Source: an uncultured Acidobacteriota bacterium (lineage in GTDB: Bacteria > Acidobacteriota > DATKUA01). Taken from it: a stretch of DNA of 64,000 nt. The stretch is from contig CAYOXX010000001.1 in assembly GCA_964408025.1 (NCBI GenBank), positions 79,140 through 143,139 of the forward strand, in the 5' to 3' direction. Each line of letters begins with the position of its first letter. The stretch's first letter is position 1. Shown here piece by piece: positions 9,427-50,588 of this stretch. The translations under genes were made by a program, and so were the position numbers. The notes below the pieces were generated by a model that saw nothing but the letters and a program-made list of their open reading frames with translations, had not been told where the DNA came from and did no database searches.

Positions 9427-11958
9427 ATGGTTGGTCCGTCTCGGCAGAGGTTAGTTACATGGAGGAGAGCGGTAAGCGCTCAGTGTGTCGTTGTCTTAAT
9501 CTTCATACTTATATTCGGCGACCTTGTCGTTTCCCAAGAAATAAACACTCGAACTGATGACCGCCCAGTGCTGCGGTCCTCAGAACGGCGCCACGGTTCT
9601 CCCGCATCTCCATATTTCAGCAGGTTCAGGCAGCCGGACGGAACAAAGTTCCTGGCGCGCCTATTCGGTGATGAGAGCTACCATTGGATGGGGACCGCCG
9701 CCGGTTACACGATCGGTCGGAACAGGCAGACCGGTTACTACGAATATCTTACGACGGACGACGAAGGCCGATTCAGATTTTCGGACGTACGAGTAGGCAT
9801 CGGCGACCCGCGGAAAGCCGGCATACCAAAACGAGTTAGGGAGAGCGGCGATATCATCCGCGAGAGGAGGCGGATCTACCTCAACCGGATGGCGGTCGCA
9901 ACCGCTCCGCAAATTGCTATGCCTGCAGCCACCACTACAGGCGACCTCAAATTACTTGTGATCCTGGCCAATTTCAGCGATACGACGACCACCTACACGC
10001 AGAGCGATTTCAACAGCCTCTTCAACACACCCGGATACTCGGACTACGGAGCCCTTGGTTCCGTATGGGACTACTTCGACGAGGCCTCCTACGGGCTCTT
10101 GAATCTGGATACAACGGTGTCGGTCTGGGTGGACCTCCCTCACACCATGGCCTACTACGGGGCCAATATATCCGGCTACGATGTGCGCCCCCGCGAAATG
10201 GTGGAAGATGCAATCGCTGCTCTCGATGCGACAGGATTCGATTTCTCCCCCTTTGATGTCGATGAGGACGGGTGGATAGATGCTTTTGCGGTCATCCACC
10301 AGGGCCGCGGAGAGGAAGCCGGCGGTGGCGCCGACACCATCTGGTCGCATAAATGGGCTCTGTCGTCTCCTGTCACGGTGGACGGCATCAATATCCAGAC
10401 TTATTACACGGGGCCGGAAAAGCTATATAGCAGCATCTCCACGATCGGTGTCCACTGTCACGAGTTTGGACACGTCCTCGGCCTGCCGGATCTCTACGAT
10501 TATGGTTACGACTCGAAGGGCGTGGGCGACTGGGGAATTATGGCCGGCGGCTCCTGGAACAATCTAGGGAGAACGCCGGCGCACTTCCTCGGATGGTGTA
10601 AGGCACAACTCGCTTGGGTAGTCCCTACGCAGCTCGACGCAGACCAGTCCGATATAACTGTGTCGAGGCTGTCGGACAATCAATCAGTCTACAGAATTTC
10701 AGACGGCATGGGATCGGGCGAGTACCTGATGGTGGAAAACCGGCAGCTTCATGGCTTCGACTCTTTCCTGCCGGGTGCCGGTATCCTGATAACCCATATT
10801 GACGAGAACCAACCCAACAACAACGACCAGACCCAGTATCTGGTCGGGATTGTCCAGGCCGATGGGCTCTGGCACCTGGAAAACAATGTCAACTACGGGG
10901 ACACCGGCGATCCCTACCCCGGCTCGGCCGATAACCGGGCTCTATCACCTTGGACTGATCCTGATAGCGACAGCTATTACAACGGCGTCACAGGCATCGC
11001 CGTCTTCAACATCAGCGACTCAGCCGCAACCATGACCTTCGACCTGGATCTACAAGCGGAGCCGAAAGGCTCCTTAACGGTGAATATCGAGCCGGCCGAA
11101 GCTGTAGTCGCCGGCGCGCAGTGGCGTAGAGTCGGCACTTCGACCTGGTACGACAGCGGCTTCACCGAAAGCGAAATTCCGGTCGGAGATTACGATGTGG
11201 AATTCAGTAGCATCGCTGGATGGATCACGCCTTCTAACGAGCCGGTAACAATTACCGTCGGCGAAACCACCACTACCTCCGGCACCTACACGCTGCAAAC
11301 CGGTTCCCTGAGAGTAACTATCGAACCTCAGGGTGCCAAAGATGCCGGCGCGCAATGGCGCCGAATCGGCACTTCGACCTGGTACGACAGCGACTTCACC
11401 GAGAGCGGCATCCCGACAGGAAGCTACAACGTGGAATTCAAAAGCATCTCTGGGTGGGACACGCCCTCGAACGAGCCTGTCGTAATCACCTTTGGCGGCA
11501 CCGCCACTGCCTCCGGCACCTACATCCTGCAAACCGGTTCCCTGAGTGTGACTATCGAGCCCCAGGGTGCCAGAGATGCCGGCGCGCAGTGGCGCCGAGT
11601 CGGCACTTCGATCTGGCACGACAGCGGCTACACCGAGTCAGACATCCCTGTCGGCGAGGAGACTGTGGAGTTCCAAGAGATAGAAGATTGGGCAGCCCCT
11701 GAGAACCAACCTGTCACTATCATTAAGGACGACAATACCCCCCTAACTGGAACATACGTGATATGCCCAAAGACCTACGACGTGAACCTCGACGGCAGTG
11801 TGACGCCGGGCGACGCCCTGATGGCCTTCCAGCACTATCTGGGGATCATAACCATCTCCGATCCCTGCAGCCTGCTGCGCGCCGACGCCAACGACGACGG
11901 CAGCATCACGCCGGGCGACGCACTTATCATTTTCCAGGATTATTTAGGGCTGAATTAG
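9427..11958 (+). CDS. Secreted M6-family (immune-inhibitor-A-like) zinc metalloprotease + 3x 78-aa beta-module + C-terminal dockerin-like module
   Basis: N-terminal hydrophobic signal-like segment. HEXXH 'HEFGHVLGLPDLYD' at 10459-10473 sits within M6-domain-like context ('LLVILANFSD', 'HKW', 'GDWGIMAGG', 'GILITHID'). Three tandem repeats and a duplicated Ca-loop dockerin segment follow. Confidence 0.8.
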   Translation: MVGPSRQRLVTWRRAVSAQCVVVLIFILIFGDLVVSQEINTRTDDRPVLRSSERRHGSPASPYFSRFRQPDGTKFLARLFGDESYHWMGTAAGYTIGRNRQTGYYEYLTTDDEGRFRFSDVRVGIGDPRKAGIPKRVRESGDIIRERRRIYLNRMAVATAPQIAMPAATTTGDLKLLVILANFSDTTTTYTQSDFNSLFNTPGYSDYGALGSVWDYFDEASYGLLNLDTTVSVWVDLPHTMAYYGANISGYDVRPREMVEDAIAALDATGFDFSPFDVDEDGWIDAFAVIHQGRGEEAGGGADTIWSHKWALSSPVTVDGINIQTYYTGPEKLYSSISTIGVHCHEFGHVLGLPDLYDYGYDSKGVGDWGIMAGGSWNNLGRTPAHFLGWCKAQLAWVVPTQLDADQSDITVSRLSDNQSVYRISDGMGSGEYLMVENRQLHGFDSFLPGAGILITHIDENQPNNNDQTQYLVGIVQADGLWHLENNVNYGDTGDPYPGSADNRALSPWTDPDSDSYYNGVTGIAVFNISDSAATMTFDLDLQAEPKGSLTVNIEPAEAVVAGAQWRRVGTSTWYDSGFTESEIPVGDYDVEFSSIAGWITPSNEPVTITVGETTTTSGTYTLQTGSLRVTIEPQGAKDAGAQWRRIGTSTWYDSDFTESGIPTGSYNVEFKSISGWDTPSNEPVVITFGGTATASGTYILQTGSLSVTIEPQGARDAGAQWRRVGTSIWHDSGYTESDIPVGEETVEFQEIEDWAAPENQPVTIIKDDNTPLTGTYVICPKTYDVNLDGSVTPGDALMAFQHYLGIITISDPCSLLRADANDDGSITPGDALIIFQDYLGLN
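11068..11769 (+). repeat. Three in-frame tandem coding repeats of exactly 234 nt (78-aa 'GSLxVxIEP..GAQWRRxGTSxWxDSGxTE..P.G...VEF' module)
   Basis: Repeat starts at 11068, 11302 and 11536 were read directly from the DNA and the translation. Confidence 0.9.
11776..11955 (+). other. Dockerin-like module (coding segment)
   Basis: 'YDVNLDGSVTPGDALMAFQHYLG...ADANDDGSITPGDALIIFQDYLGLN'. These are two D-x-[ND]-x-DG-x-[VI] Ca-loop plus helix segments about 30 aa apart. Confidence 0.75.
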
Positions 11959-12300
11959 GAGACAAGTATGACTCGCATCTCCCAAGGACGCGGGCGAGGA
12001 GGGCGGAGAGGACGAACAACTAAACAGCGAGGCCGATACGGATACATTGATATGAGATTCTGAGGGGCGCAGGAAACAGATCACCCGCTTAAACGAGACC
12101 TTGAGTTCTTCCTAATAAAATTCTCTTGAAAGATTCAAAAAAGACTTGCGCAACTCTTCCGACTCGCGTAGTTTATTCATCTGGGCCTTGATGATCTTTG
12201 AAGCAAACCATTACTCGCTGCTCATAATCCGCGCCATTACTTCCATTATACCTTGCGCGTACAGCAATGAGAAATTAATCGCTTTAAAGGAGGTTAAACT

Positions 12301-15300
12301 ATGATTAATTCCCAGAAGACCATCCAGTTTATTATTTTTCTGGCGATTACGACTATAAGTGTACTGCCCGGTATCTTATTGGGGCAAAGTGGCTCACATC
12401 ATAAGGGAGGTAAGGAATTTGGTCTTATTCATTATCATAGAAATAATACTATAACCTATAGCCCACCATCATTAGGTGATAGAACTCCTTTAATATTAGT
12501 ACATGGAATGGGGAGCGAAATTGATTATTTGGAAGGATGGGATGAATGGATTGATTATATCAATGACAATGATAATGGGCGTTTTGAGATTTACAGATTT
12601 ATTTACAATTCCGACAACAGAATAGAATATAATGGGAGACTTTTTGCCGATGCTTTCCTTGATAACTATGATCTACGGACAAGCAACAAGACCATTATTC
12701 TGGCTCATAGTATGGGAGGTCTCGTCTCAAGAGCAGCACTTGCATATAGCCCACAAATGCTGAACGCAGTTAAAAGGCTAGTAACTTTGGGTACTCCCCA
12801 TTATGGTTCACCATTGGCGATCCCAGCATGGGTACGTTATTCACGAATGGAAATTCCTCTTCTGTATCGCTGGGCGTTTTGGGCACATTATGCTGGTTGG
12901 TGGAGTTTTTTCCCCGCGGAGCGTGGAGCCTTTGATTTGGCTTGGTATCCTCCTGATGCAAATTACAATCTCCCCAATGGTGCTGTGTCTGGTGCACAAA
13001 TTACAGAGACAAATAATGTATTAAACTATAACCAGGACCAAATAAATTGGCATAACGAGGCAATCACTGAACCTTATATAGAACGTTTAGACGAGAATGA
13101 ACCACTTGAAGTGAAGCTAAAAACATTTGCTTATGCCGTAATTTACGACGATGGTTCCGAAGAATGGAGTTGGCTAACGGATTTTTCTCCGATATGGGAA
13201 TTTGGTTGGCAATTTCTAACTGTGCATCAAACCGAAGGAGGTTGGTACCCATTTTTATTAAATGATGGTGTTGTTCCTGAAATAAGTGCCCGGTACAATT
13301 ATCAAGCTTTTGGACAAACAATCAATGGGTATTACTCTCACGGGGATTTATTGACTCATCAAGACATCCACAGCGTAGTTTTTCAGTTTCTTTGCGCTTT
13401 GCATGACATTCCTGATGACCCGACACCTGATTATTACAGAGTATCTGGATACGTGAAAAACACTTCAGGATCTCCCATTAAGAATGTCAAGGTTACATTC
13501 GTCGGTAATGGAAGAACTGAATACACATATACGGATAGAGATGGATATTATGATAACTGGCTCGAAGAAGGATGGAGTGGCACTGTCAATGCTGAAGGAG
13601 GTGAATATACATACAGTGGTCCGATTTCTATTTCATCGCTAACATCTAACCTTGATGGACAAAATTTCACTGGTACACCCTTTTATACGGGAACTCCTGA
13701 TTACACTATAATTAGCTTTACTGCTGATTCAACGGCAACTGAAAGAACACATGTATATTATTCCATGACAGTGAGAAATGTTGGGAATAATACTGTGCCC
13801 ATAGCGAGTGAAGGAACCACCATATACATATCAGAAGATAGCATAATAAGCGAGTGGGATTATAGAATAGGATCCGATCCGACCCCTCTGTACAATCCTG
13901 GAGATGAGGAATCATTCAATAATGACTTTCGTATGTTGACTTCTGCTACAGGAAGCCCAACTAACTATTATCGACCAACGGTATTATGGCAAAATACACA
14001 GATAGTATATGCGGCTGGTCAAAATATGCATATAGAAGTGGTAGGATTTGCATATACCAAATCGGGAAGCGATGATAGAAGAACTCCCGCCGGAGATATC
14101 GGAAATCCGGCCCCTGACGACGGCAACTGGCCAGGTCCAGGCCTTGACAAGTACAGCATTATTGCACGATTGGGAGAGGGTGGAGAGCCGTTCAGGTTAG
14201 CCGTATACCAAATAGATGCGACTCGATGGGAATATGATGGTCCCGCACCTGCAAGTGGAGAACTATTTATAACAGCAAATGATACCGATCTTAGTGATAA
14301 TATAGGATCTTTAGGAGATAATAGGTATAGCATAACAACTTATGATTACGCAATAAGACTACCAATAGGTAATGTATACATCGGTGCATTTATAGATGCG
14401 CATAATGAAGTTCCCGAAAGTGATGAAGCTAATAATTCAATGTGCGTACCAATATACATTGAACCCGCTCCTGACCCTGTAATCAGTGGTAATATTCGCC
14501 GGAGCAATGGCGACCCAGTCTCAGACGTGCTTGTAATATTCCCTGGTGCTGGTTCAGCTGTAAGCAATGAAGAAGAAGGTTATTACCAGATCGAGGTTCC
14601 ATGGGGCCTTACTAGCTATTTACATATCGCGAAAGATGACGGTGCAGATTGGACATTCGATGTAGATGGAAACGAGTATTCTATTCAGAATGATCAGACT
14701 ATTGATGTTTTAGCAACTCCAGCGAATATTGGTTTACTGACGGTAACGATTCAACCGGCCGAAGCTGAGTTATTCGGCGCACAATGGCGACGCACAGGAA
14801 CAACAACTTGGCACGATAGCGGCGATACCGAGACTGATATACCAGCTGGGAATGTTACTGTAGAGTTCAAGGAAATCCTCGGTTGGACAAAGCCGGATAA
14901 CCAAACGGAAATAGTACCCTCAGGAGATACATTATCACTTAGCGGCACCTACACGCTGCAAACCGGATCCTTGAGCGTAACTATCGAGCCCCAAGGTGCC
15001 AGAGATGCCGGCGCGCAGTGGCGCCGAGTCGGCACTTTGACCTGGTACGACAGCGGCTTCACCGAAGGCGGCATTCCGACAGGAAGCTACGATGTGGAAT
15101 TCAAGAGCGTCTATGGATGGGACACACCCTTGAACGAGCCTGTCGTAATCACCTTTGGCGGCACCACCACTGCCTCCGGCACCTACGAGCTGCTTTCCGG
15201 TTCCCTCCAGGTGAATATCTCGCCCCAGGGAGCCGTCGACGCCGGAGCCAAGTGGCGGCGCACCGGTACCGGTACCTGGCTCGATAGCGGATACACGGAG

Positions 15301-16023
15301 AGCGGTATCCCCGTCGGCGATGTCACCATAGAGTTCAAAACAACGCCGGGCTGGACAGAACCTTCCGACAGGACCGCTACGATTAATCAAGATGAAACCA
15401 CTACGTTGGATGCCGCCTATACCGAAACGCCACTCATTGTCAGCGTATCCGACGGGCTCGGAATGCCTGGTGATACCGTTCCAATCAGCGTGAGCTTGAG
15501 CGAGGGCGCGGGAGTGCTGTCCTTCGGATTCGACCTGACCTTCGATCCTAATGTTCTCGAGTACCAGCCGCCCGCGGAGAGAGGCGGCTTGGTACCCGGC
15601 GGCTATAATTTTAACTCCAACCTCATCGGTAACAGCATCGTCAGGGTCGGCGGCTACAGCGGCGATGGCGAGACAACACTTAATCCCGGCAGCGGCGTCC
15701 TGGCCGTCATCAACTTCAAGATAAAAGAAGATGCCGCAACCGAAACCACAACCGAACTGGTCCTCAGCGTCATTTCGGACGACATCGCGAGCGGCACGAT
15801 CGACAACGGTCAGATCGAAGTAATCGACTGCGTAAATAACTACGACGTAAACCAGGACGGCAGTGTTACGCCGGGCGACGCACTGGTGACCTTCCAGCAC
15901 TATCTTGGAATATCCACCATCACCGATCCCTGCAGCCTCTTACGCGCCGACGCCAACGACGACGGCAGCATCACGCCCGGCGACGCCCTGATCATTTTCC
16001 AGGAATATTTAGGGCTGAATTAG
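12301..16023 (+). CDS. Secreted multidomain alpha/beta-hydrolase (lipase class-2/PGAP1-like) + carboxypeptidase-regulatory-like and CARDB-like domains + 3x 78-aa module + cohesin-like + dockerin-like
   Basis: Strong SD AAGGAGG lies 7-8 nt upstream. Signal-like N-terminus. 'LILVHGMGS' and nucleophile elbow 'ILAHSMGG' (Ser codon 12709-12711), plus 'TLGTPHYGS'. The downstream domains were read from the translation. Confidence 0.75.
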   Translation: MINSQKTIQFIIFLAITTISVLPGILLGQSGSHHKGGKEFGLIHYHRNNTITYSPPSLGDRTPLILVHGMGSEIDYLEGWDEWIDYINDNDNGRFEIYRFIYNSDNRIEYNGRLFADAFLDNYDLRTSNKTIILAHSMGGLVSRAALAYSPQMLNAVKRLVTLGTPHYGSPLAIPAWVRYSRMEIPLLYRWAFWAHYAGWWSFFPAERGAFDLAWYPPDANYNLPNGAVSGAQITETNNVLNYNQDQINWHNEAITEPYIERLDENEPLEVKLKTFAYAVIYDDGSEEWSWLTDFSPIWEFGWQFLTVHQTEGGWYPFLLNDGVVPEISARYNYQAFGQTINGYYSHGDLLTHQDIHSVVFQFLCALHDIPDDPTPDYYRVSGYVKNTSGSPIKNVKVTFVGNGRTEYTYTDRDGYYDNWLEEGWSGTVNAEGGEYTYSGPISISSLTSNLDGQNFTGTPFYTGTPDYTIISFTADSTATERTHVYYSMTVRNVGNNTVPIASEGTTIYISEDSIISEWDYRIGSDPTPLYNPGDEESFNNDFRMLTSATGSPTNYYRPTVLWQNTQIVYAAGQNMHIEVVGFAYTKSGSDDRRTPAGDIGNPAPDDGNWPGPGLDKYSIIARLGEGGEPFRLAVYQIDATRWEYDGPAPASGELFITANDTDLSDNIGSLGDNRYSITTYDYAIRLPIGNVYIGAFIDAHNEVPESDEANNSMCVPIYIEPAPDPVISGNIRRSNGDPVSDVLVIFPGAGSAVSNEEEGYYQIEVPWGLTSYLHIAKDDGADWTFDVDGNEYSIQNDQTIDVLATPANIGLLTVTIQPAEAELFGAQWRRTGTTTWHDSGDTETDIPAGNVTVEFKEILGWTKPDNQTEIVPSGDTLSLSGTYTLQTGSLSVTIEPQGARDAGAQWRRVGTLTWYDSGFTEGGIPTGSYDVEFKSVYGWDTPLNEPVVITFGGTTTASGTYELLSGSLQVNISPQGAVDAGAKWRRTGTGTWLDSGYTESGIPVGDVTIEFKTTPGWTEPSDRTATINQDETTTLDAAYTETPLIVSVSDGLGMPGDTVPISVSLSEGAGVLSFGFDLTFDPNVLEYQPPAERGGLVPGGYNFNSNLIGNSIVRVGGYSGDGETTLNPGSGVLAVINFKIKEDAATETTTELVLSVISDDIASGTIDNGQIEVIDCVNNYDVNQDGSVTPGDALVTFQHYLGISTITDPCSLLRADANDDGSITPGDALIIFQEYLGLN
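14731..15432 (+). repeat. Three in-frame tandem coding repeats of 234 nt, same 78-aa module family as 11068-11769
   Basis: Repeat starts at 14731, 14965 and 15199. The second copy is about 88% identical in DNA to 11302-11535 (hand alignment, 29 mismatches in 234, no gaps). Confidence 0.9.
15433..15822 (+). other. Cohesin-like module (coding segment)
   Basis: 'LIVSVSDGLGMPGDTVPISVSLSEGAGVLSFGFDLTFDPNVLEYQ...VRVGGYSGDG...GVLAVINFKIKED...GQIEV'. The pattern resembles the cohesin jelly-roll signature (G..V.IPV.....G....F.L.YDPNVLE). Confidence 0.65.
15841..16020 (+). other. Dockerin-like module (coding segment)
   Basis: 'YDVNQDGSVTPGDALVTFQHYLG...ADANDDGSITPGDALIIFQEYLGLN'. Identity to 11776-11955 is 159/180 nt by hand alignment. 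Confidence 0.75.
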
Positions 16024-16113
16024 GAGGCCGACATGAACCGCATTCCTGAGGTAGTAAAGCGAAATAAAACCAAGCAATCTCCACTGTTGCTTAGTGAAGG
16101 AAAGGTAAATCCT

Positions 16114-18312
16114 ATGCGCAGCGCGACCATACGTTATATATTATTGGCCTCTTTGCTAATAATATTAAATTGTTTCACTACCTCTTCTGCTTTGGAACCT
16201 CTGCAGGCGGCAATGGCCCCGAGCTCGATCGGCGTTTCCAGCGCTACGGGCGGTCCAGGAGACAATATCTCGATCAGCGTCAGCATCAACGACGGCTCAG
16301 GAGTGCTGGCATTCGGCCTCGACCTGAACTTCGATTCCTCAGTTCTTAGTTACAACAGTACCTCCAAGGGCAACCGTGTTCCGAGCGGATACAATTTCAG
16401 CTCGAACCTCATCGGCGGCAACACGGTTCGCGTTGGTGGCTATAGCGGCGATGGCTCGACAGGGCTGAATTCCGGCGGCGGTACCGTAGCCGTAATGTCA
16501 TTCCAGATAAAGAACGACGCGCCCATGGGTACCACCAACCTTACTCTTAGTAACCTGACCGACGGGTTCGCCGGCTTGTCAATCAGTAATGGTTCAGTGA
16601 CTGTTCAGATTACGGTAAAGATCAATTCATTCACCGCCAGCCCGAGCACGATCGCCCGGGGAGGATTTTCGACGCTAAGCTGGAGCATCAGCGACGCCAC
16701 CAGCGCCAGCATCAACCAGGGTATCGGCAGCGTCGACCCGGTTAGCGGCTCCGTGGAGGTTTCGCCCAACAACACAAAGACCTACACCCTGACCGCCCAA
16801 GGTCCGGGCGGCCCCAAAACAGCCCGAGTCACGGTGACAGTCAATATAGATCTACCCACTGTCAACTATTTCACAGCGAGTCCAGGAACCATAGCTGCAG
16901 GGGGATCGTCCACACTAAGCTGGGATGTAAATAATGCGGACAGCGTCAGCATCAACAATGGCGTCGGGAACGTAAACAAGAAAAGCGGCAGCAAGAACGT
17001 CTCGCCCGGCAGCACAACTATCTATACCCTCACGGCTACGAACTTCGCCGGGTCATCTACTGCCCAGGCGACCGTCACCGTCCTCAGCGCGCCCATAATC
17101 AACTGGTTCTTCTCCAGCACCTCGTCGGGCGATCCTATCCACACATCGGAAGATGCTTATCTCAGCTGGAGCGTTACGGGTGCCGCTAACGTCAGGATCA
17201 ACAACGGCGTGGGCGCCGTCGATTCGGAATGCGGCGCTACAGCTGTTTCGCCCAATAGGACGACCAGCTATAGACTGACGGCCACAAACAACGCCGGAAC
17301 TTCTACGGCTAACGCCACCGTTCACGTGACCGACAGACCGAGAATTCGGGCCTTCTATTCACTTCCAGCTTCAGCCGTGTTGGGACAGGCGATAAATTTC
17401 TACTGGACTGTCGCCGGCGCCAGCAGCCTCGAAATCTCCCCCGACGTTGGAGACGTCGATGGTGATAATGGGTCCACAGGCTACCTGCCAACCTCCTCCA
17501 GGACTTACACCCTCAGAGCCCGCAACTCCGACGGTACCGATACCGCCACTGTCATGGTTGCTGTGGTTAGGGAGGCTCCTGATCTGGAGGTCAGCATATC
17601 AAGGGTTGGTAGCAGGTCCATCAGATCAACTACCGCTCCTCCTCGACGAAGGATCGGTAAGGGACCAGTCGGCACGGAGTCGACTATAGAGTTCATAGTC
17701 AAGAACGTCGGAAGCGGTGATGCCAACAACTTTAAAGTTCAGCTTGTGGAAAACGGAGTTGTCATTGACGAGATCAGGGTATCTCATCTGGCAGCCGGAG
17801 CCACCGCCAGTTTGAGCTTTGAATATACTCCTCTCACTCCCGGCGAGAACGCTGTAGAGTTAGTGGTAGACTCGGATTGCATGTTGCCCGAGTTGAACAG
17901 AACTAATAACACCTATCATGGAAGATTCATCGCCACGTCTGTAAAAGGTGTCGACCTGGTAGTTAGCCACGTAAGAGTAATGCGGCTCGGTGCTGGTGCG
18001 TCTTCCGACGCCCTGCAGATCAGCTTCCGTATAACCAACTGCGGCAATACCGAATCGCCTGAATTCCAATACCGAGCCTACATTACAAGGAAGGCAGGAA
18101 GGATCACAAAAAGCGATACCCTCGTTATCGAAGGTCAGATATCCAGCCTGGGCGTGAACGGAGACTACGTCGAAATAACCAGAGTGATGCTGTTCAAGAA
18201 GCTCAAGAGGAAGTTCTATTTCCAAGGATTCGTAGACGTAGCCGAGGCTGTGAGCGAGGCCAACGAGGAGAATAACGCCACCGTCAAGAAGATCCAAAGG
18301 AAGTACCTGTAG
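16114..18312 (+). CDS. Secreted scaffold-like protein: cohesin-like module + 4 Ig-like repeats + 2 CARDB domains
   Basis: The ATG at 16114 has a purine-rich SD-like run (GAAGGAAAGG) upstream and opens directly onto a signal peptide 'MRSATIRYILLASLLIILNCF'. The ORF is also open from 16033. Domains were read from the translation. The CARDB ends 'ELNRTNNT' and 'EANEENNA' are characteristic. Confidence 0.7.
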   Translation: MRSATIRYILLASLLIILNCFTTSSALEPLQAAMAPSSIGVSSATGGPGDNISISVSINDGSGVLAFGLDLNFDSSVLSYNSTSKGNRVPSGYNFSSNLIGGNTVRVGGYSGDGSTGLNSGGGTVAVMSFQIKNDAPMGTTNLTLSNLTDGFAGLSISNGSVTVQITVKINSFTASPSTIARGGFSTLSWSISDATSASINQGIGSVDPVSGSVEVSPNNTKTYTLTAQGPGGPKTARVTVTVNIDLPTVNYFTASPGTIAAGGSSTLSWDVNNADSVSINNGVGNVNKKSGSKNVSPGSTTIYTLTATNFAGSSTAQATVTVLSAPIINWFFSSTSSGDPIHTSEDAYLSWSVTGAANVRINNGVGAVDSECGATAVSPNRTTSYRLTATNNAGTSTANATVHVTDRPRIRAFYSLPASAVLGQAINFYWTVAGASSLEISPDVGDVDGDNGSTGYLPTSSRTYTLRARNSDGTDTATVMVAVVREAPDLEVSISRVGSRSIRSTTAPPRRRIGKGPVGTESTIEFIVKNVGSGDANNFKVQLVENGVVIDEIRVSHLAAGATASLSFEYTPLTPGENAVELVVDSDCMLPELNRTNNTYHGRFIATSVKGVDLVVSHVRVMRLGAGASSDALQISFRITNCGNTESPEFQYRAYITRKAGRITKSDTLVIEGQISSLGVNGDYVEITRVMLFKKLKRKFYFQGFVDVAEAVSEANEENNATVKKIQRKYL
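16222..16610 (+). other. Cohesin-like module (coding segment)
   Basis: 'SSIGVSSATGGPGDNISISVSINDGSGVLAFGLDLNFDSSVLSYN...VRVGGYSGDG...GTVAVMSFQIKND...GSVTV'. It is roughly half identical in protein to the 15433-15822 module. Confidence 0.65.
16621..17580 (+). repeat. Four tandem divergent coding repeats (79-82 aa, Ig-like 'F.ASP..I..GG.S.LSW.V..A.SV.IN.GVG.V...G...VSP..TT.YTLTA.N..G' pattern)
   Basis: Repeat anchor motifs start at 16621, 16861, 17098 and 17344 (spacings 240, 237 and 246 nt). Confidence 0.75.
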
Positions 18313-41968: not shown

Positions 41969-44089
41969 CTATCGAAACTGCTCCAGGGCCTGGCTCAGGT
42001 AGTACATATTCACAGGTCCCCAGGGGGCATAGACGGAACGCATGGTGCTGATCGCAGTCGGGCGGTAGATGCCGTAGGCGTGGTAGCCGCCGCCCTCGAA
42101 CAGGCCCACGCTCGAATACCCGTACGGAGTCGGCACCTCGATAACCGGGTCGGTAAAGAAGCGCCTCCACTTGCAGGCGGCGGGATCGGAATTGAGCGTC
42201 AGGTTCGGCTGATCGGGTTCGGTGTCGTAAGGGTAGGTGCTGCTCTCGTTACCCATCTCGACGTATTCGTCGTGCAAGTAGCCGATCGAGTGTCCGAACT
42301 CATGGAGCAGGACCAACCCATAGCGCAGTCTGGAGCTGGAGAGCAGCACCCTGCCGAAGTTGAAGTAAGTATTGCCGCGGCCGATGGCGTACGGGTCGTG
42401 GACGATGACCACAGTCTGGGTGACGAGAGGGATTACTGACGATGCGGCGCTCTGCACTGCATTATCGTCGATACTCAGGATGAGATAATCGCCCGTTCCC
42501 TCGCAGTAAGACCCGAGTGCGTTGTCGCGCTCGATATTCATATCCGGGAAGCCTGGTCCCGCCTGCACCGAAACGGTTGGAACGGCGTAGACGTTTATGC
42601 GGCCGCGGTTGGAACGGAACGGCTCGGTGTTCAGCAGCGTCGCGGAGTTGAAGGCGGCGTCGAAGAGGAAGTGCTGCTGCTCGGCTAAATTGCAGATGGC
42701 GTCGTCGTTGAGATCATCAAACGGCTCCGGCTGGTCGAAGGTCCCGTTGTTATTGCGGTCGTGGTAGTTCTCACCGGCGTTGTAAACCCCGTTGCCGTTG
42801 GCGTCGAGGTAGGTGTCGCCGTCCCAGCGACCGTTACTATCGAGGTCGGTGAAGGTCTCGTTCGAGCTGGTGTAGCCGTCCCCAAGGATCACTATTACGA
42901 GCCGTCCCGCGTCGTCGCCGCTGCGCCACAGCGGCACACCGCCGCCCGAAACCGGCTGTCTGCCTATCGGATCGAGGTAGACGTGGTAAGGCCGCTTTCG
43001 CTTGATCTTAACGGCCTGCAGGCGCAGCAGCTCCTGTAGCTGCAGGTCCTCGGGAGGCGCGACGGCGAGCGTCACAATATCGCCGTCCTCAACTTCCATT
43101 CCGAGACCCACGAAACCGTTCTCGTCGCTGATCAGCAGCCGCCGCAGCCCGCCGAGCGGGCTGAGGATGGCAACGTAGGCGTTTGCGATGGGTGACTTGT
43201 CGCCTCGGCGCATTATGCGAGCGATGAAGGGATAACCCCGGTCCAGCTTGATCCGCCGTCGCTCGCCGTCGGCTATATTTACCCTTGGCAGCACTCTCAC
43301 CGGGTAACGGACTCCCGCGCCGGTCCTGGAGTCGACGTAGCTCGCGTAAATCGAGATGTCGTACTCACCCGGCGGCACGTCGAGCACGAACTTGTTCCGC
43401 CTGCCCCTGATCGCGGACGAGGCGATTTCCTCTCCGGTCCTGTAATCGTCGGCGTAGACAGTGCCGCTCAGGCCTAGCCCGCTCTCCAGGCGGTCACTTA
43501 AGAATCCGATATATCGTACCGTCGCCGTGGGGGAAGGTAACTCGAGGCCTGACGGTCGGCGGTCGCCGTACTGTTCCAGGTAATCGCGCATCCCCCACGT
43601 GTGTCGGGAGGCAATCGCTACCGTCGGAGAGGTATCGTGTCCCGGCACGAATTGCCCGTCAAGGATAGTCCCGCCGTCCTCGATCTCTATTTCGAGACCG
43701 CCGCCTTCGGCTGGGAAGGGAATGCGGACGATGAACGGCTCTCCGAGGGGCCGGCTGCCGCCTGTGAAGAGCCCATTAGGCGCGACATCGTCGACAAGCA
43801 GCCAGCGGGGCAGCACCAGGGGTCCCCTCGCGATCACCATCCCCCCAGCGTCCCTGACGATAAAACGGTAGCCCCCGTCCAGACCGGTCGGCGCGGCACC
43901 TTCCGTGATGCGGTGGCCGAGCACCCGCAATTCGCCGCCGTCCCAGCGCAGTTCCAGTTCGAGGACGGCGGTTGCGGCGCCGACTTCCCGGGCCACAGCG
44001 GATACCGGCAGTGCGAGCACCCCAACAAGCGCCGCTATCAACCACGCGGTCCCAGGTAGGCTCTTCATAGCAGACCTCCGTCGATGCAT
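41969..44089 (-). CDS. Secreted M64-family (IgA-peptidase-like) zinc metallopeptidase with Asp/Asn-rich Ca-binding-type repeats
   Basis: Signal peptide 'AWLIAALVGVLALPVSAVA'. Catalytic block 'LLHEFGHSIGYLHDEY'. Repeats 'DLDSNGRWDGDTYLDANGNGVYNAGENYHDRNNNG'. Confidence 0.75.
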   Translation of the reverse strand: MHRRRSAMKSLPGTAWLIAALVGVLALPVSAVAREVGAATAVLELELRWDGGELRVLGHRITEGAAPTGLDGGYRFIVRDAGGMVIARGPLVLPRWLLVDDVAPNGLFTGGSRPLGEPFIVRIPFPAEGGGLEIEIEDGGTILDGQFVPGHDTSPTVAIASRHTWGMRDYLEQYGDRRPSGLELPSPTATVRYIGFLSDRLESGLGLSGTVYADDYRTGEEIASSAIRGRRNKFVLDVPPGEYDISIYASYVDSRTGAGVRYPVRVLPRVNIADGERRRIKLDRGYPFIARIMRRGDKSPIANAYVAILSPLGGLRRLLISDENGFVGLGMEVEDGDIVTLAVAPPEDLQLQELLRLQAVKIKRKRPYHVYLDPIGRQPVSGGGVPLWRSGDDAGRLVIVILGDGYTSSNETFTDLDSNGRWDGDTYLDANGNGVYNAGENYHDRNNNGTFDQPEPFDDLNDDAICNLAEQQHFLFDAAFNSATLLNTEPFRSNRGRINVYAVPTVSVQAGPGFPDMNIERDNALGSYCEGTGDYLILSIDDNAVQSAASSVIPLVTQTVVIVHDPYAIGRGNTYFNFGRVLLSSSRLRYGLVLLHEFGHSIGYLHDEYVEMGNESSTYPYDTEPDQPNLTLNSDPAACKWRRFFTDPVIEVPTPYGYSSVGLFEGGGYHAYGIYRPTAISTMRSVYAPWGPVNMYYLSQALEQFR

Positions 44090-48569: not shown

Positions 48570-50588
48570 TCAACGCGGCGGGTCGACGGTGTAGTAGAGG
48601 CTTTCGTCCCAGCGGCTGTTCTCGTAGACGAGGAAATAGCCGTCGTCGAAGTAGTCGACGAAGCGGTAGTGCGAGAAGGGTTGCCCCAGGAGCTCGATGG
48701 CTTCCTGAATCTGCCGGTGGTTGTAGTGCCTGGTGCGGATCACCAGGAACCGCAGCGCGTAGTTGTCCTGCAGGTACTTGATACTCCTCCTGGACGGGAA
48801 AGCGGACATCTCGTTATAGAGTGTCATGTACTCGGGCGGCCAGTAGCTGAGCTGGCCGGTGACCATCGGCCGCCAGTGGTACATCGACCAGTACATGCGG
48901 TCCGTCTCCGGGTGGTGGGGCGGCCCCCAGACCGGCAACTCGATGAAGGGGCTGGCCGCGGGCTCGGCTGCCAGCCAACGGTAGAACTCCGGCACCAGCA
49001 GCGGCACCTCCACCCAGTCGTGCCGGTTGCGGATGTTCGGGTCGCGATTGTGGTTGTAGGTGGTGTCTACCTGGTACTCGAAGCCGATCCAGACGAACAT
49101 GCCGACCAGCAGCGCCACGCCCGCCACCTTCGGCAACTTCTCGAGTCGCTTAAGCGCCACGCCTGCGGCCGCGACGGCGAAGAGCACGAAGTTGGTGTTG
49201 AAGTGCATCGGCTGCCTGATCGTGCCGAAGCCCGGCAGGAAGCTGAACAGTGGCCAGTAGACGTTCTGCGCCACGCTCACGTTACGGATGTGTAGTTGCG
49301 GCCCGAGTGCGAAGAGGCTGTTCAAAACCGCAAGCGACAGGAAGGCCCAGAGCGCAAAGCCCTCGAAACTAATCCTCCCCTTCCCCACCCCGACGGCTGC
49401 CACGAACGCCGCAAACAGCCAGGCGATCAGTGCGCACCATAGCAACCCTGTAAGAAGCGTGAATCCATCGTTCGGTTGCGACGGCGGCGATACGGCATAG
49501 GCCGCCATGAGCAGGCCGCTCAGCGCGGTCAGGGCCAGTACGAGCCAGCGCATGGCGCCGAAAGCTCTGGTGATACCTTTCCCCGCCTCTTCACCCTTCT
49601 TAGGCGCCGATGGCCGAGTCGTAAAGAACATCCCGAGGGCGAATAGAATCGCCGCCGCGGCGAGGAAGCCGGGGAAGAGCGTGAAATAGGGTGTCCTGAC
49701 CCGCGCCGGCAGGAGGTCATAAGGCGGCGAGACGAGATATTTCGGCTGCTGGGCGTAATCGAGCAGGTCGGGGGAGAAGACAAGCACCTGCTGAAGGTCC
49801 GGCCCGAGGCCGAGTTCCTGTGTGATGCGATAGAACGGGTAGTAGAACGGCGCCAGAAACAGCAGGAGAACCGCGCCGGAGATCAGCAGCCAGGCAATAG
49901 AACGGCGGTCGAGCGGGAAGGCGATCCAGAGCATGATCACGAACAGAGCCAGCGGTAAGCTGAACATCACGAAGTAGGTGGCGCAGCTCATAGCCTGCAT
50001 CCAGAGCGCCGCCATCGCCGCGAAGGCCCAGCGGCGCCTGCGCTCGCGGAAAAAGCGTATCATGAACAGCAGCACATACGGCAGCCACTCGTGCGAGGCG
50101 TACTGCAGGTGGGTGATGCTGTCCAGCCTGTACGGCGTGAAGGCAAACAGCACTCCCGCGATCACGGCGATCGCCGTGCGGCCTGTGAGGTAGCGAACCA
50201 GCAGGAACATGCCGAAAGCGGCGAGCGTGAAGGCTATCAGGAAGGAGGCGTTGAACACGACCGTCGGCTCGGAGGTGAAGAACAGCAGCGGCAGCGCCAG
50301 CAGGCTCGGGGCGATGACGCTGTCGCTGTAAGCCAGGGCGTCCGTGTTCGGGTAGAAGATATTGGCCCTGTAGAGGTTGATCGGGTCGTTTAGAAGCTGG
50401 TGGTGAACCCAGGTCATGGTCCAGATGAGCACCTTGGGGTCGGGGCCGGCGTGCAGGCGGCCCTTCATGTCGACCGAGCGCGGATAGAGAACAGCTACCG
50501 TGAAGGCGAAGAAGAGAACTAAAACCGCCAGCTTGACGATAAACGGCTTACTGAAAATCCCCAGGACCTTTTGCGGCAGCGCCAACAA
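48570..50588 (-). CDS. Large polytopic membrane protein, possible GT-C-fold glycosyltransferase
   Basis: More than 10 hydrophobic helices, a first-loop segment 'NIFYPNTDALAYSDS', and a soluble C-terminal domain of about 180 aa. The function is inferred only from topology and context. Confidence 0.5.
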   Translation of the reverse strand: MLALPQKVLGIFSKPFIVKLAVLVLFFAFTVAVLYPRSVDMKGRLHAGPDPKVLIWTMTWVHHQLLNDPINLYRANIFYPNTDALAYSDSVIAPSLLALPLLFFTSEPTVVFNASFLIAFTLAAFGMFLLVRYLTGRTAIAVIAGVLFAFTPYRLDSITHLQYASHEWLPYVLLFMIRFFRERRRRWAFAAMAALWMQAMSCATYFVMFSLPLALFVIMLWIAFPLDRRSIAWLLISGAVLLLFLAPFYYPFYRITQELGLGPDLQQVLVFSPDLLDYAQQPKYLVSPPYDLLPARVRTPYFTLFPGFLAAAAILFALGMFFTTRPSAPKKGEEAGKGITRAFGAMRWLVLALTALSGLLMAAYAVSPPSQPNDGFTLLTGLLWCALIAWLFAAFVAAVGVGKGRISFEGFALWAFLSLAVLNSLFALGPQLHIRNVSVAQNVYWPLFSFLPGFGTIRQPMHFNTNFVLFAVAAAGVALKRLEKLPKVAGVALLVGMFVWIGFEYQVDTTYNHNRDPNIRNRHDWVEVPLLVPEFYRWLAAEPAASPFIELPVWGPPHHPETDRMYWSMYHWRPMVTGQLSYWPPEYMTLYNEMSAFPSRRSIKYLQDNYALRFLVIRTRHYNHRQIQEAIELLGQPFSHYRFVDYFDDGYFLVYENSRWDESLYYTVDPPR

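Follow-up and report, generated by a model that had tools for sequence, protein, structure and literature searches.

Cohesin and dockerin modules on a protease and a lipase-like hydrolase: a conserved gene pair with exchanged catalytic heads in uncultured bacteria

In the amylosome of Ruminococcus bromii, the protein Amy4 combines a catalytic module with a cohesin and a dockerin, and its cohesin has been observed experimentally to bind its own dockerin as well as others (Ze et al. 2015, PMC4611034). Single-cohesin base proteins of this system (Sca2) also bind the dockerins of peptidases (PMC4611034). Here we describe a locus from a 64-kb stretch of DNA (the window) of an uncultured bacterium of sediment type, in which three genes encode an M6 protease with a C-terminal dockerin (P1), a lipase-like hydrolase with a cohesin and a dockerin (P2), and a base protein with one cohesin followed by immunoglobulin (Ig)-like and CARDB domains (P3). 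The modules are confirmed as genuine cohesins (Coh) and dockerins (Doc), both by profile and by predicted fold. The conserved unit of the locus is a pair of genes, X-Coh-Doc followed by Coh-Ig-CARDB, to which the Doc-only protease is an optional extra. We consider it probable that the products form a Ca-dependent cohesin-dockerin assembly, in which the secreted M6 protease and the lipase-like hydrolase are held on the Coh-Ig-CARDB base by promiscuous pairing.

Like Amy4, P2 and those of its relatives that have S8 or M6 heads unite catalytic module, cohesin and dockerin in one polypeptide of a non-cellulose system. However, Amy4 is a GH13 amylase from a Firmicute that uses sortase anchoring, whereas the heads here are a lipase or proteases, the two modules form a contiguous C-terminal tandem, the host belongs to an uncultured lineage with Acidobacteriota as its best named relatives, and the system is known from sequence alone. 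Complexes of cohesin anchors, adaptors with both modules and dockerin-bearing peptidases, serving the degradation of polypeptides in part or in full, have also been proposed in silico, as the planctosome of freshwater Planctomycetes (an anchor, a Doc-Coh adaptor and Doc-peptidases; Andrei et al. 2019, PMC6461901) and as a cellulosome-like complex in Cloacimonadota (PMC8542988). The adaptors of those two systems are non-catalytic, their peptidases belong to M12B/M14 or S8/C25, and their anchors are of the LTD or type IX secretion system (T9SS) type. In contrast, the adaptor at our locus is itself an enzyme, the base is Coh-Ig-CARDB, a lipase is included, and the two-gene cassette carries swappable heads across genomes. 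The general idea of cohesin-dockerin peptidase complexes is not new. A cohesin and a dockerin are likewise found in the non-cellulolytic Archaeoglobus fulgidus, in which one protein reportedly carries both modules; its cohesin 2XDH matches our model of the P2 cohesin (TM score 0.79), but that system is archaeal and lacks a defined catalytic cargo. Specific binding has been verified for cohesin-dockerin pairs of archaea (cited in PMC9012536).

Clostridial and ruminococcal cellulosomes share with P1-P3 the module families, the internally symmetric duplication of the Ca loop, and adaptor scaffoldins that carry a cohesin as well as a dockerin. The cellulosome of Ruminococcus flavefaciens includes dockerin-bearing peptidases and an esterase/lipase (PMC2930009), and in cellulosomes the carrier of a dockerin is in some cases an S8 peptidase or an esterase/lipase (PMC2930009, PMC12484212). 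P1-P3 differ in having no multi-cohesin scaffoldin, with one cohesin each in P2 and P3, and in belonging to a lineage that is probably diderm. No carbohydrate-binding module (CBM) or glycoside hydrolase family was significant in P1-P3 (Pfam; a sub-threshold match to CBM49 reached 13.9 bits against a cut-off of 23.4), and neither a Pfam match for an SLH or sortase anchor nor a C-terminal hydrophobic segment was found in the three proteins. The P1-P3 system is not a cellulosome; its mode of working would resemble that of the R. bromii amylosome and of the planctosome, itself a hypothesis. The literature searched, which did not extend to the standard review (Peer et al. 2009), held no account of a contiguous Coh-Doc tail on proteases or lipases, of a fixed Coh-Ig-CARDB partnership or head swapping, or of the fused form and the block-wise conservation of the interacting segment described below.

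Cohesins, dockerins and catalytic heads of P1-P3

The final 64 or so residues of both P1 and P2 consist of duplicated 22-residue Ca-loop/helix segments, with the repeats DVNxDGSVTPGDAL and DANDDGSITPGDAL present in each protein. An earlier note on this DNA, made from the sequence alone, had read these C-termini as dockerins, and the Dockerin_1 profile (PF00404) agrees, with 33.9 bits for P1 (E 3.6e-8) and 32.3 bits for P2 (E 1.1e-7) against a cut-off of 22.9. In each dockerin, Ca-loop positions D1, N3, D5 and D12 are intact in the first and the second repeat. The dockerins of P1 and P2 agree at 55 of 66 positions in one comparison and are 86% identical in another alignment. Positions 10, 11, 17, 18 and 22 (P, G, F, Q and G) are the same in P1 and P2 and in both repeats; these positions set the specificity of type-I dockerins, as known from Clostridium thermocellum and Clostridium cellulolyticum complexes. 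Within each dockerin the two repeats are symmetric, like those of dockerins with a dual binding mode, and a pair of cysteines in the dockerin is near-invariant across relatives. Many more distant Coh-Doc tails end in ...YLGxPSCLD and carry extra cysteines, often 4-6 around the dockerin, and form a distinct subfamily; the subfamily of the window ends in YLGLN and has the Cys1177/Cys1211 pair only.

The modules of about 130 aa that the earlier note had taken for cohesin-like both match the Cohesin profile (PF00963), that of P2 with 51.9 bits (E 1.2e-13; cut-off 24.1) and that of P3 with the score listed in Table 1. In P2 the cohesin is joined to the dockerin by a linker of about five residues. 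An AlphaFold2 (AF2) model of P2 residues 1035-1240, built from an alignment of 20 tails, has a mean predicted local distance difference test score (pLDDT) of 92.8 and a predicted template modelling score (pTM) of 0.77. It displays nine strands, of which the first and last are interrupted, and then three helices (model residues 157-168, 176-182 and 192-203), and so has the nine-stranded beta jelly-roll of the cohesin fold. The top Foldseek matches of this model in the PDB are all cohesins (TM 0.75-0.82); apart from an archaeal one, they are of type I and come from solved complexes with dockerins. The best is 5nrm_A, the sixth cohesin of Acetivibrio cellulolyticus ScaB (Coh6) with its dockerin (E 1.2e-11, TM 0.82); others are cohesins of C. 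cellulolyticum and Clostridium acetobutylicum and the non-cellulosomal 2XDH of A. fulgidus. A profile of the P2 tail searched against PDB sequences retrieved cohesins (7.5e-11) and the dockerin 2ccl_B (1.3e-5). The earlier note had named missing profile matches and wrong folds as grounds for abandoning its view; all the Pfam matches lie above their cut-offs, and the fold returned by AF2 and Foldseek is a cohesin followed by helices.

The cohesins of P2 and P3 are 52% identical to one another. The 8-3-6-5 sheet, which is the canonical dockerin-binding face of cohesins, is 67% identical between them (22/33 residues), whereas the opposite sheet reaches 40% (18/45). In comparison with L001, a related locus described below, the P2-type cohesin of the window is 94% identical (to the cohesin of the L001 S8 protein) and the P3-type cohesin 87% (to that of the L001 scaffold). 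P2-type and P3-type cohesins are separate conserved paralogue classes. Since the recognition positions of the dockerins are identical and the 8-3-6-5 faces are alike, we expect that either dockerin would fit either cohesin.

The catalytic heads are those of a protease and a lipase-like hydrolase and not of glycoside hydrolases, as the earlier note had stated. The head of P1 matches TIGR03296 (NCBIfam; 237 bits, E 3.8e-70, cut-off 110.8) and Peptidase_M6 (Pfam; E 8.7e-29), and contains the zinc motif HEXXHXXGXXD as H345EFGHVLGLPD, with GLPDLYD downstream. P2 is composed, in order, of a signal-like N-terminus, an alpha/beta hydrolase, transthyretin-like and CARDB-like domains, three AQWRR modules, the cohesin and the dockerin; a database representative, P0281, is identical to it over its full length. 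The P2 head matches PGAP1 with 35.8 bits (Pfam; cut-off 24.3) and, more weakly, Abhydrolase_1, LCAT, DUF676 and Lipase_2. It shows an oxyanion HG at residues 68-69 and a nucleophile elbow A135-H-S137-M-G, and residues 45-180 align by sequence to Burkholderia lipases and the esterase BlEst2 in the PDB. By motif resemblance, the remaining triad residues may be D322 (in NDGVV) and H347. The tail of P3 gives a CARDB match of E 9.9e-24 (83.9 bits) and I-set-like matches (Pfam).

All three open reading frames (ORFs) lie on the + strand and together span 9427-18312 in the ORF listing, and a hydrophobicity scan found one strongly hydrophobic segment at each N-terminus and no second one in any of the three proteins. 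P3 has two candidate starts. That at 16033 is preceded, with a 6-nt spacer, by a strong AGGAGG that overlaps the P2 stop; that at 16114 agrees with orthologues of 732-734 aa. The gap between P2 and P3 is 9 nt with the former and 90 nt with the latter. Signal-like N-termini, a common direction and this spacing all bear out the earlier note. P2 and P3 also share a reading frame, with one TAG stop and three codons between them (16021-16035). Programmed readthrough from P2 into P3 was considered and rejected, as the frames differ in the related loci L001 and L003 and the shared frame looks coincidental.

Table 1. Features of the P1-P3 locus, in positions of the window
Feature	Position	Strand	Remarks
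P1 gene	9427..11958	+	843 aa: signal-like N-terminus, M6 metalloprotease, three AQWRR modules, C-terminal dockerin
P1 M6 catalytic domain, residues 178-457	9958..10797	+	TIGR03296, Peptidase_M6, motif
P1 AQWRR modules, three in tandem	11062..11763	+	78 aa each; spacer or stalk
P1 dockerin	11764..11955	+	Cys, then 22-residue repeats DVNLDGSVTPGDAL.. and DANDDGSITPGDAL..; second Cys in linker
Relic of P2/P3 junction after P1 stop	11956..11985 (compare 16021-16050)	+	TAGGAG..ATGA.TCGCAT = stop, Shine-Dalgarno sequence, ATG
Low-GC segment	12000..14950	.	GC 0.36-0.49; P2 tail 0.55-0.62, flanks about 0.63
P2 gene	12301..16023	+	1240 aa; strong ribosome-binding site AAAGGAGG
P2 alpha/beta-hydrolase head, about residues 55-370	12463..13410	+	
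P2 AQWRR modules, three	14725..15426	+	Second module 86% DNA-identical to second P1 module
P2 cohesin, residues 1045-1176	15433..15828	+	Pfam Cohesin, AF2, Foldseek
P2 dockerin, residues 1177-1240	15829..16020	+	Conserved Cys1177 and Cys1211
P3 gene	16033..18312	+	759 aa; or 732 aa from 16114
P3 cohesin	16222..16611	+	Cohesin 48.8 bits, E 1.1e-12 (cut-off 24.1)
P3 tail, four Ig-like and two CARDB domains	16612..18267	+	

A gene pair with exchanged heads in related loci

Relatives of the locus were sought through P3 orthologues, in GTDB genomes (which gave one metagenome-assembled genome (MAG), L006) and on metagenome contigs by means of the dockerin profile (which gave L008). Full-length orthologues of P3 were obtained at 73%, 55% and 49% identity, with further ones in L006 (a GTDB representative MAG) and L008 (a metagenome contig). 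Counting only loci with enough upstream sequence, an X-Coh-Doc gene was found directly upstream of the P3 orthologue in the window and in four of four other loci (L001, L003, L006 and L008). The head X is the PGAP1 lipase in the window, a Fervidolysin-prodomain/S8 subtilisin-NIDO protein in L001, an M6 protease with six AQWRR modules in L003, and Ig/fn3 proteins of 1750 aa and 1765 aa in L006 and L008. The pair is kept although the flanking genes of these loci are unrelated. Similarly, a cohesin ORF comes directly after the dockerin ORF in each of the seven metagenome loci whose dockerins are most similar. A further locus, L007, does not inform on the pair: the gene after its S8-Coh-Doc gene is a second S8 protease and not a P3 orthologue, and the contig ends there.

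The earlier note had asked whether the three-gene order recurs in related genomes. The arrangement does recur, but only two of the genes make up the conserved unit. L001, L006 and L008 carry the adaptor and base genes without an adjacent Doc-only enzyme, and the adaptor cohesin is strongly conserved in them, which argues that this cohesin has a partner even where no Doc-only enzyme adjoins, be it a dockerin of its own type or unlinked proteins.

In order to survey the tail more widely, an exhaustive HMMER search of 1.84 billion representatives was made; roughly 400 relatives of the tail reached E <= 1e-10. The closest tail relatives bear S8 heads (P0282, P0283, P0284, P0286 and P0288) or an M6 head (P0285), and the lipase of the window is the sole non-protease head among the eight closest. 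A contiguous C-terminal Coh-Doc tandem was present in 69 of the 149 best representatives, on heads that include S8 and papain C1 proteases, MopE-like repeats, a beta-helix and propellers; neither a glycoside hydrolase nor a CBM was found among the 25 commonest families of these 69. We conclude that head X has been exchanged by recombination, mostly between proteases, with a low-GC lipase head in the window.

L003 also contains a fused form. Just downstream of its P3 orthologue, the gene at 12381-15701 of that locus joins an M6 protease and one AQWRR module to a tail of four Ig-like and two CARDB domains, and this tail (13902-15701) is 38% identical to that of P3 over 491 aa (E 2e-103). The fusion joins in one chain what the window divides between P1 (protease, stalk and dockerin) and P3 (cohesin and Ig-CARDB), and may be read, in the manner of a Rosetta stone, as the presumed P1-P3 complex in covalent form. 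Together with the synteny, it provides the best in silico evidence that plug enzymes and socket base cooperate. The head of P1 is 63% identical to that of the L003 M6-Coh-Doc protein, and P1 is plausibly a cohesin-less derivative of this type.

Assembly of P1-P3 and its alternatives

Extracellular hydrolysis of protein and lipid is one of the steps that limit the rate at which organic matter is turned over in sediments and soils, and the organisation of exoenzymes in uncultured bacteria is largely unknown territory. P1-P3 would make a compact three-protein system with two types of socket and one type of plug. In the assembly that we favour, P3 would be the base, offering one cohesin socket, while its Ig-CARDB tail would most likely direct the complex to a surface or substrate or tether it there. 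P2 would be an enzyme-bearing adaptor, whose dockerin plugs into a cohesin and whose own cohesin provides a further socket. P1, with a plug only, would bring the M6 protease as a terminal subunit. Since the dockerins seem equivalent and a conserved 8-3-6-5 face is common to both cohesins, a mixture of assemblies would be expected: P3-P1, P3-P2-P1, and chains of P2 seeded by P3 and capped by P1. Such an assembly would follow a grammar of starter, extender and terminator, and its outcome would be proteolysis and ester or lipid hydrolysis carried out together on particulate organic matter or cell debris. An extracellular location is suggested by the signal-like N-termini and the near-invariant dockerin cysteine pair. 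The locus could show cohesin-dockerin assembly serving proteolysis and lipolysis outside the Firmicutes. The gene pair itself, a conserved Coh-Doc tail and a Coh-base with freely swapped heads, amounts to a natural design rule that would be useful for designer enzyme scaffolds.

Several points weigh against this assembly. Binding, stoichiometry, location and substrates are all inferred in it, and pairing within the P1-P3 set is what the sequences of the modules lead us to expect. The two cohesin classes, at 52% identity, may have different partners. Given the linker of about five residues and the fairly rigid AF2 model, the P2 tandem could be intramolecular or purely structural. The PGAP1-like assignment does not fix the substrate range of the P2 lipase; enzymes of this kind hydrolyse a variety of esters. 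By Pfam and hydrophobicity, no anchor (SLH, sortase, lipobox, T9SS or transmembrane segment) was recognised in P3, nor any outer-membrane export signal in P1-P3. In a diderm host, the complex could reside in the periplasm. Anchoring of P3 as a lipoprotein through LIILNC was considered and rejected, as the cysteine is not kept in the orthologues. Finally, the rest of the genome may hold the true dockerin or cohesin partners.

This last point can be extended to a reading in which the partners are encoded elsewhere, for example as a multi-cohesin scaffoldin or a surface-layer protein, and the cluster is a fragment of a genome-wide network. The window covers just 64 kb of a 490-kb contig, relatives of the modules include multi-cohesin proteins and coh-doc-coh-coh architectures, and dockerin and cohesin proteins are many and scattered in R. 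flavefaciens (PMC2930009) and in anaerobic methanotrophic (ANME) archaea (PMC9012536). Nevertheless, when all six frames of the window were searched with the modules of P1-P3, no further cohesin or dockerin was found, and plug and socket genes adjoin repeatedly in unrelated genomic contexts, which argues that neighbours are partners. We regard a network of this kind as possible, though on the unlikely side. Less likely still is that the Coh-Doc tandem acts mainly on itself, either as a stabilising module in cis or as a daisy-chain in trans, with P1 and P3 not being obligatory partners. Such behaviour would agree with the occurrence of the tandem on unrelated heads (69 of the 149 top cluster representatives), with the short linker and the confident two-domain AF2 model, and with the binding of the Amy4 cohesin to its own dockerin (PMC4611034). 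It sits poorly with the conservation of a Coh-led gene directly downstream and with the L003 M6-Ig-CARDB fusion, which ties protease heads to the P3 tail; moreover, a linker of about five residues would probably make canonical binding in cis on the 8-3-6-5 face sterically unlikely.

The earlier note had proposed an ordered hierarchy from scaffold to lipase to protease. In its strict form this is a 1:1:1 trimer, in which the cohesin of P3 accepts the P2 dockerin alone and that of P2 the P1 dockerin alone. The window does contain two cohesins and two dockerins, the planctosome model has just such an order of anchor, adaptor and enzyme (PMC6461901), and the cohesin classes are conserved separately (94% and 87% within, 52% between), which allows for distinct preferences. 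The order is, however, not upheld by the dockerins, as those of P1 and P2 are 86% identical overall and identical at positions 10, 11, 17, 18 and 22 of both repeats. The 8-3-6-5 faces are the most similar part of the two cohesins, and L001, L006 and L008 keep the adaptor cohesin conserved without an adjacent Doc-only enzyme. We consider a strict trimer to be the least probable of these arrangements, and quite improbable in itself. The promiscuous assembly on P3 remains the reading that we prefer. It can be taken further: the tail of AQWRR stalk, cohesin and dockerin might be a widespread module for polymerisation in uncultured bacteria, anaerobic ones and those of sediments, building extracellular filaments of proteases and lipases ("proteolysomes"). 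P3-type proteins would seed such filaments, P2-type proteins extend them head-to-tail and P1-type proteins cap them, while catalytic heads would be swapped between lineages as cassettes and the Doc/Coh segment co-inherited as one DNA block. This extension is speculative, and we are doubtful of it.

Evolutionary anatomy and genomic setting

The AQWRR module has the consensus GSLxVTIxPxxAxxAGAQWRRxGTxTWxxSGxTExxxPxGxxxVEFxxVxGWxxP and gave no match in Pfam or among PDB sequences. Its AF2 model (pLDDT 98.2) is a 7-strand beta-sandwich, whose nearest folds (TMq 0.6-0.7, E about 5e-3) are CnaB2, SdrD-B and transthyretin-like domains. Proteins of Desulfonatronovibrio magnus, Ca. Electrothrix and Planctomycetota likewise contain the module, with 2-7 copies each, and it looks like an undescribed family of stalk domains.

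P2 is a chimera. The low-GC segment of the locus takes in the P1-P2 intergenic region and the P2 head, and the break in GC coincides with the start (14943) of a DNA repeat shared with P1. Two such repeats, 85-86% identical, were found, at 11280-11579 and 14943-15242 and at 11764-11978 and 15829-16043. It appears that the tail was resident and that the lipase head was grafted onto it recently, from a donor of lower GC. DNA alignment of the 3' ends of P1 and P2 shows that their similarity extends about 25 nt beyond both stops and takes in the Shine-Dalgarno sequence and ATG of P3. As this relic of the P2/P3 junction follows P1, where it leads only into a 30-codon ORF, the 3' end of P1 shares a duplication with the 3' end of P2 and the start of P3.

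Comparison of 15267-16761 of the window with 9150-10650 of L001 revealed a mosaic of conservation. DNA identity is 94-97% in the P2 cohesin, about 90% in the P3 cohesin and 58-80% in the rest of P3, and the heads are not alignable in DNA. Synonymous divergence (dS) is 0.29 for the tail, 0.32 for the P3 cohesin and 0.99 for the rest of P3, which is about 72% identical to the L001 protein. The higher protein identity of the two cohesins speaks for selection on the sockets. That DNA identity and dS share one pattern along the locus suggests that the interacting segment behaves as a block, which lineages exchange or which is under unusual constraint.

The cluster lies between uvrD on one side and an NlpC/P60-maf-grpE-recJ block on the other, and its GC is below that of its flanks. 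Promoter and terminator scans of the locus gave signals no better than background. A 490-kb metagenome contig from the Joint Genome Institute (JGI), Ga0111034_1025699, matches the window with 5 mismatches in 22.1 kb, and a contig from a sister sample matches it too. The best relatives of the host DnaE are 73% identical, and the best named ones are from Acidobacteriota (about 52%), which are generally diderm; the host is hence an uncultured bacterium that branches deeply and is probably diderm. Two other peptidase genes of the window, neither with a cohesin or dockerin, are a C13 legumain-like gene (47-1144, + strand) with a single EF-hand-like loop, DTDGDGLVS, and an M64 IgA-peptidase-like gene (41969-44089, - strand). 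Their presence fits a protein-degrading lifestyle. The window further contains a 672-aa ORF (48570-50588, - strand) with no Pfam match at E <= 1e-5.

In public gene calls P1, P2 and P3 are all shortened, with loss of their signal segments. P1 is made to start at M88 (756 aa) and P3 at M61 (699 aa). For P2, the calls of two samples give 498 aa and 1171 aa, and in one case its whole lipase head is lost. Since all three proteins are truncated in this manner, it is likely that such systems are under-counted.

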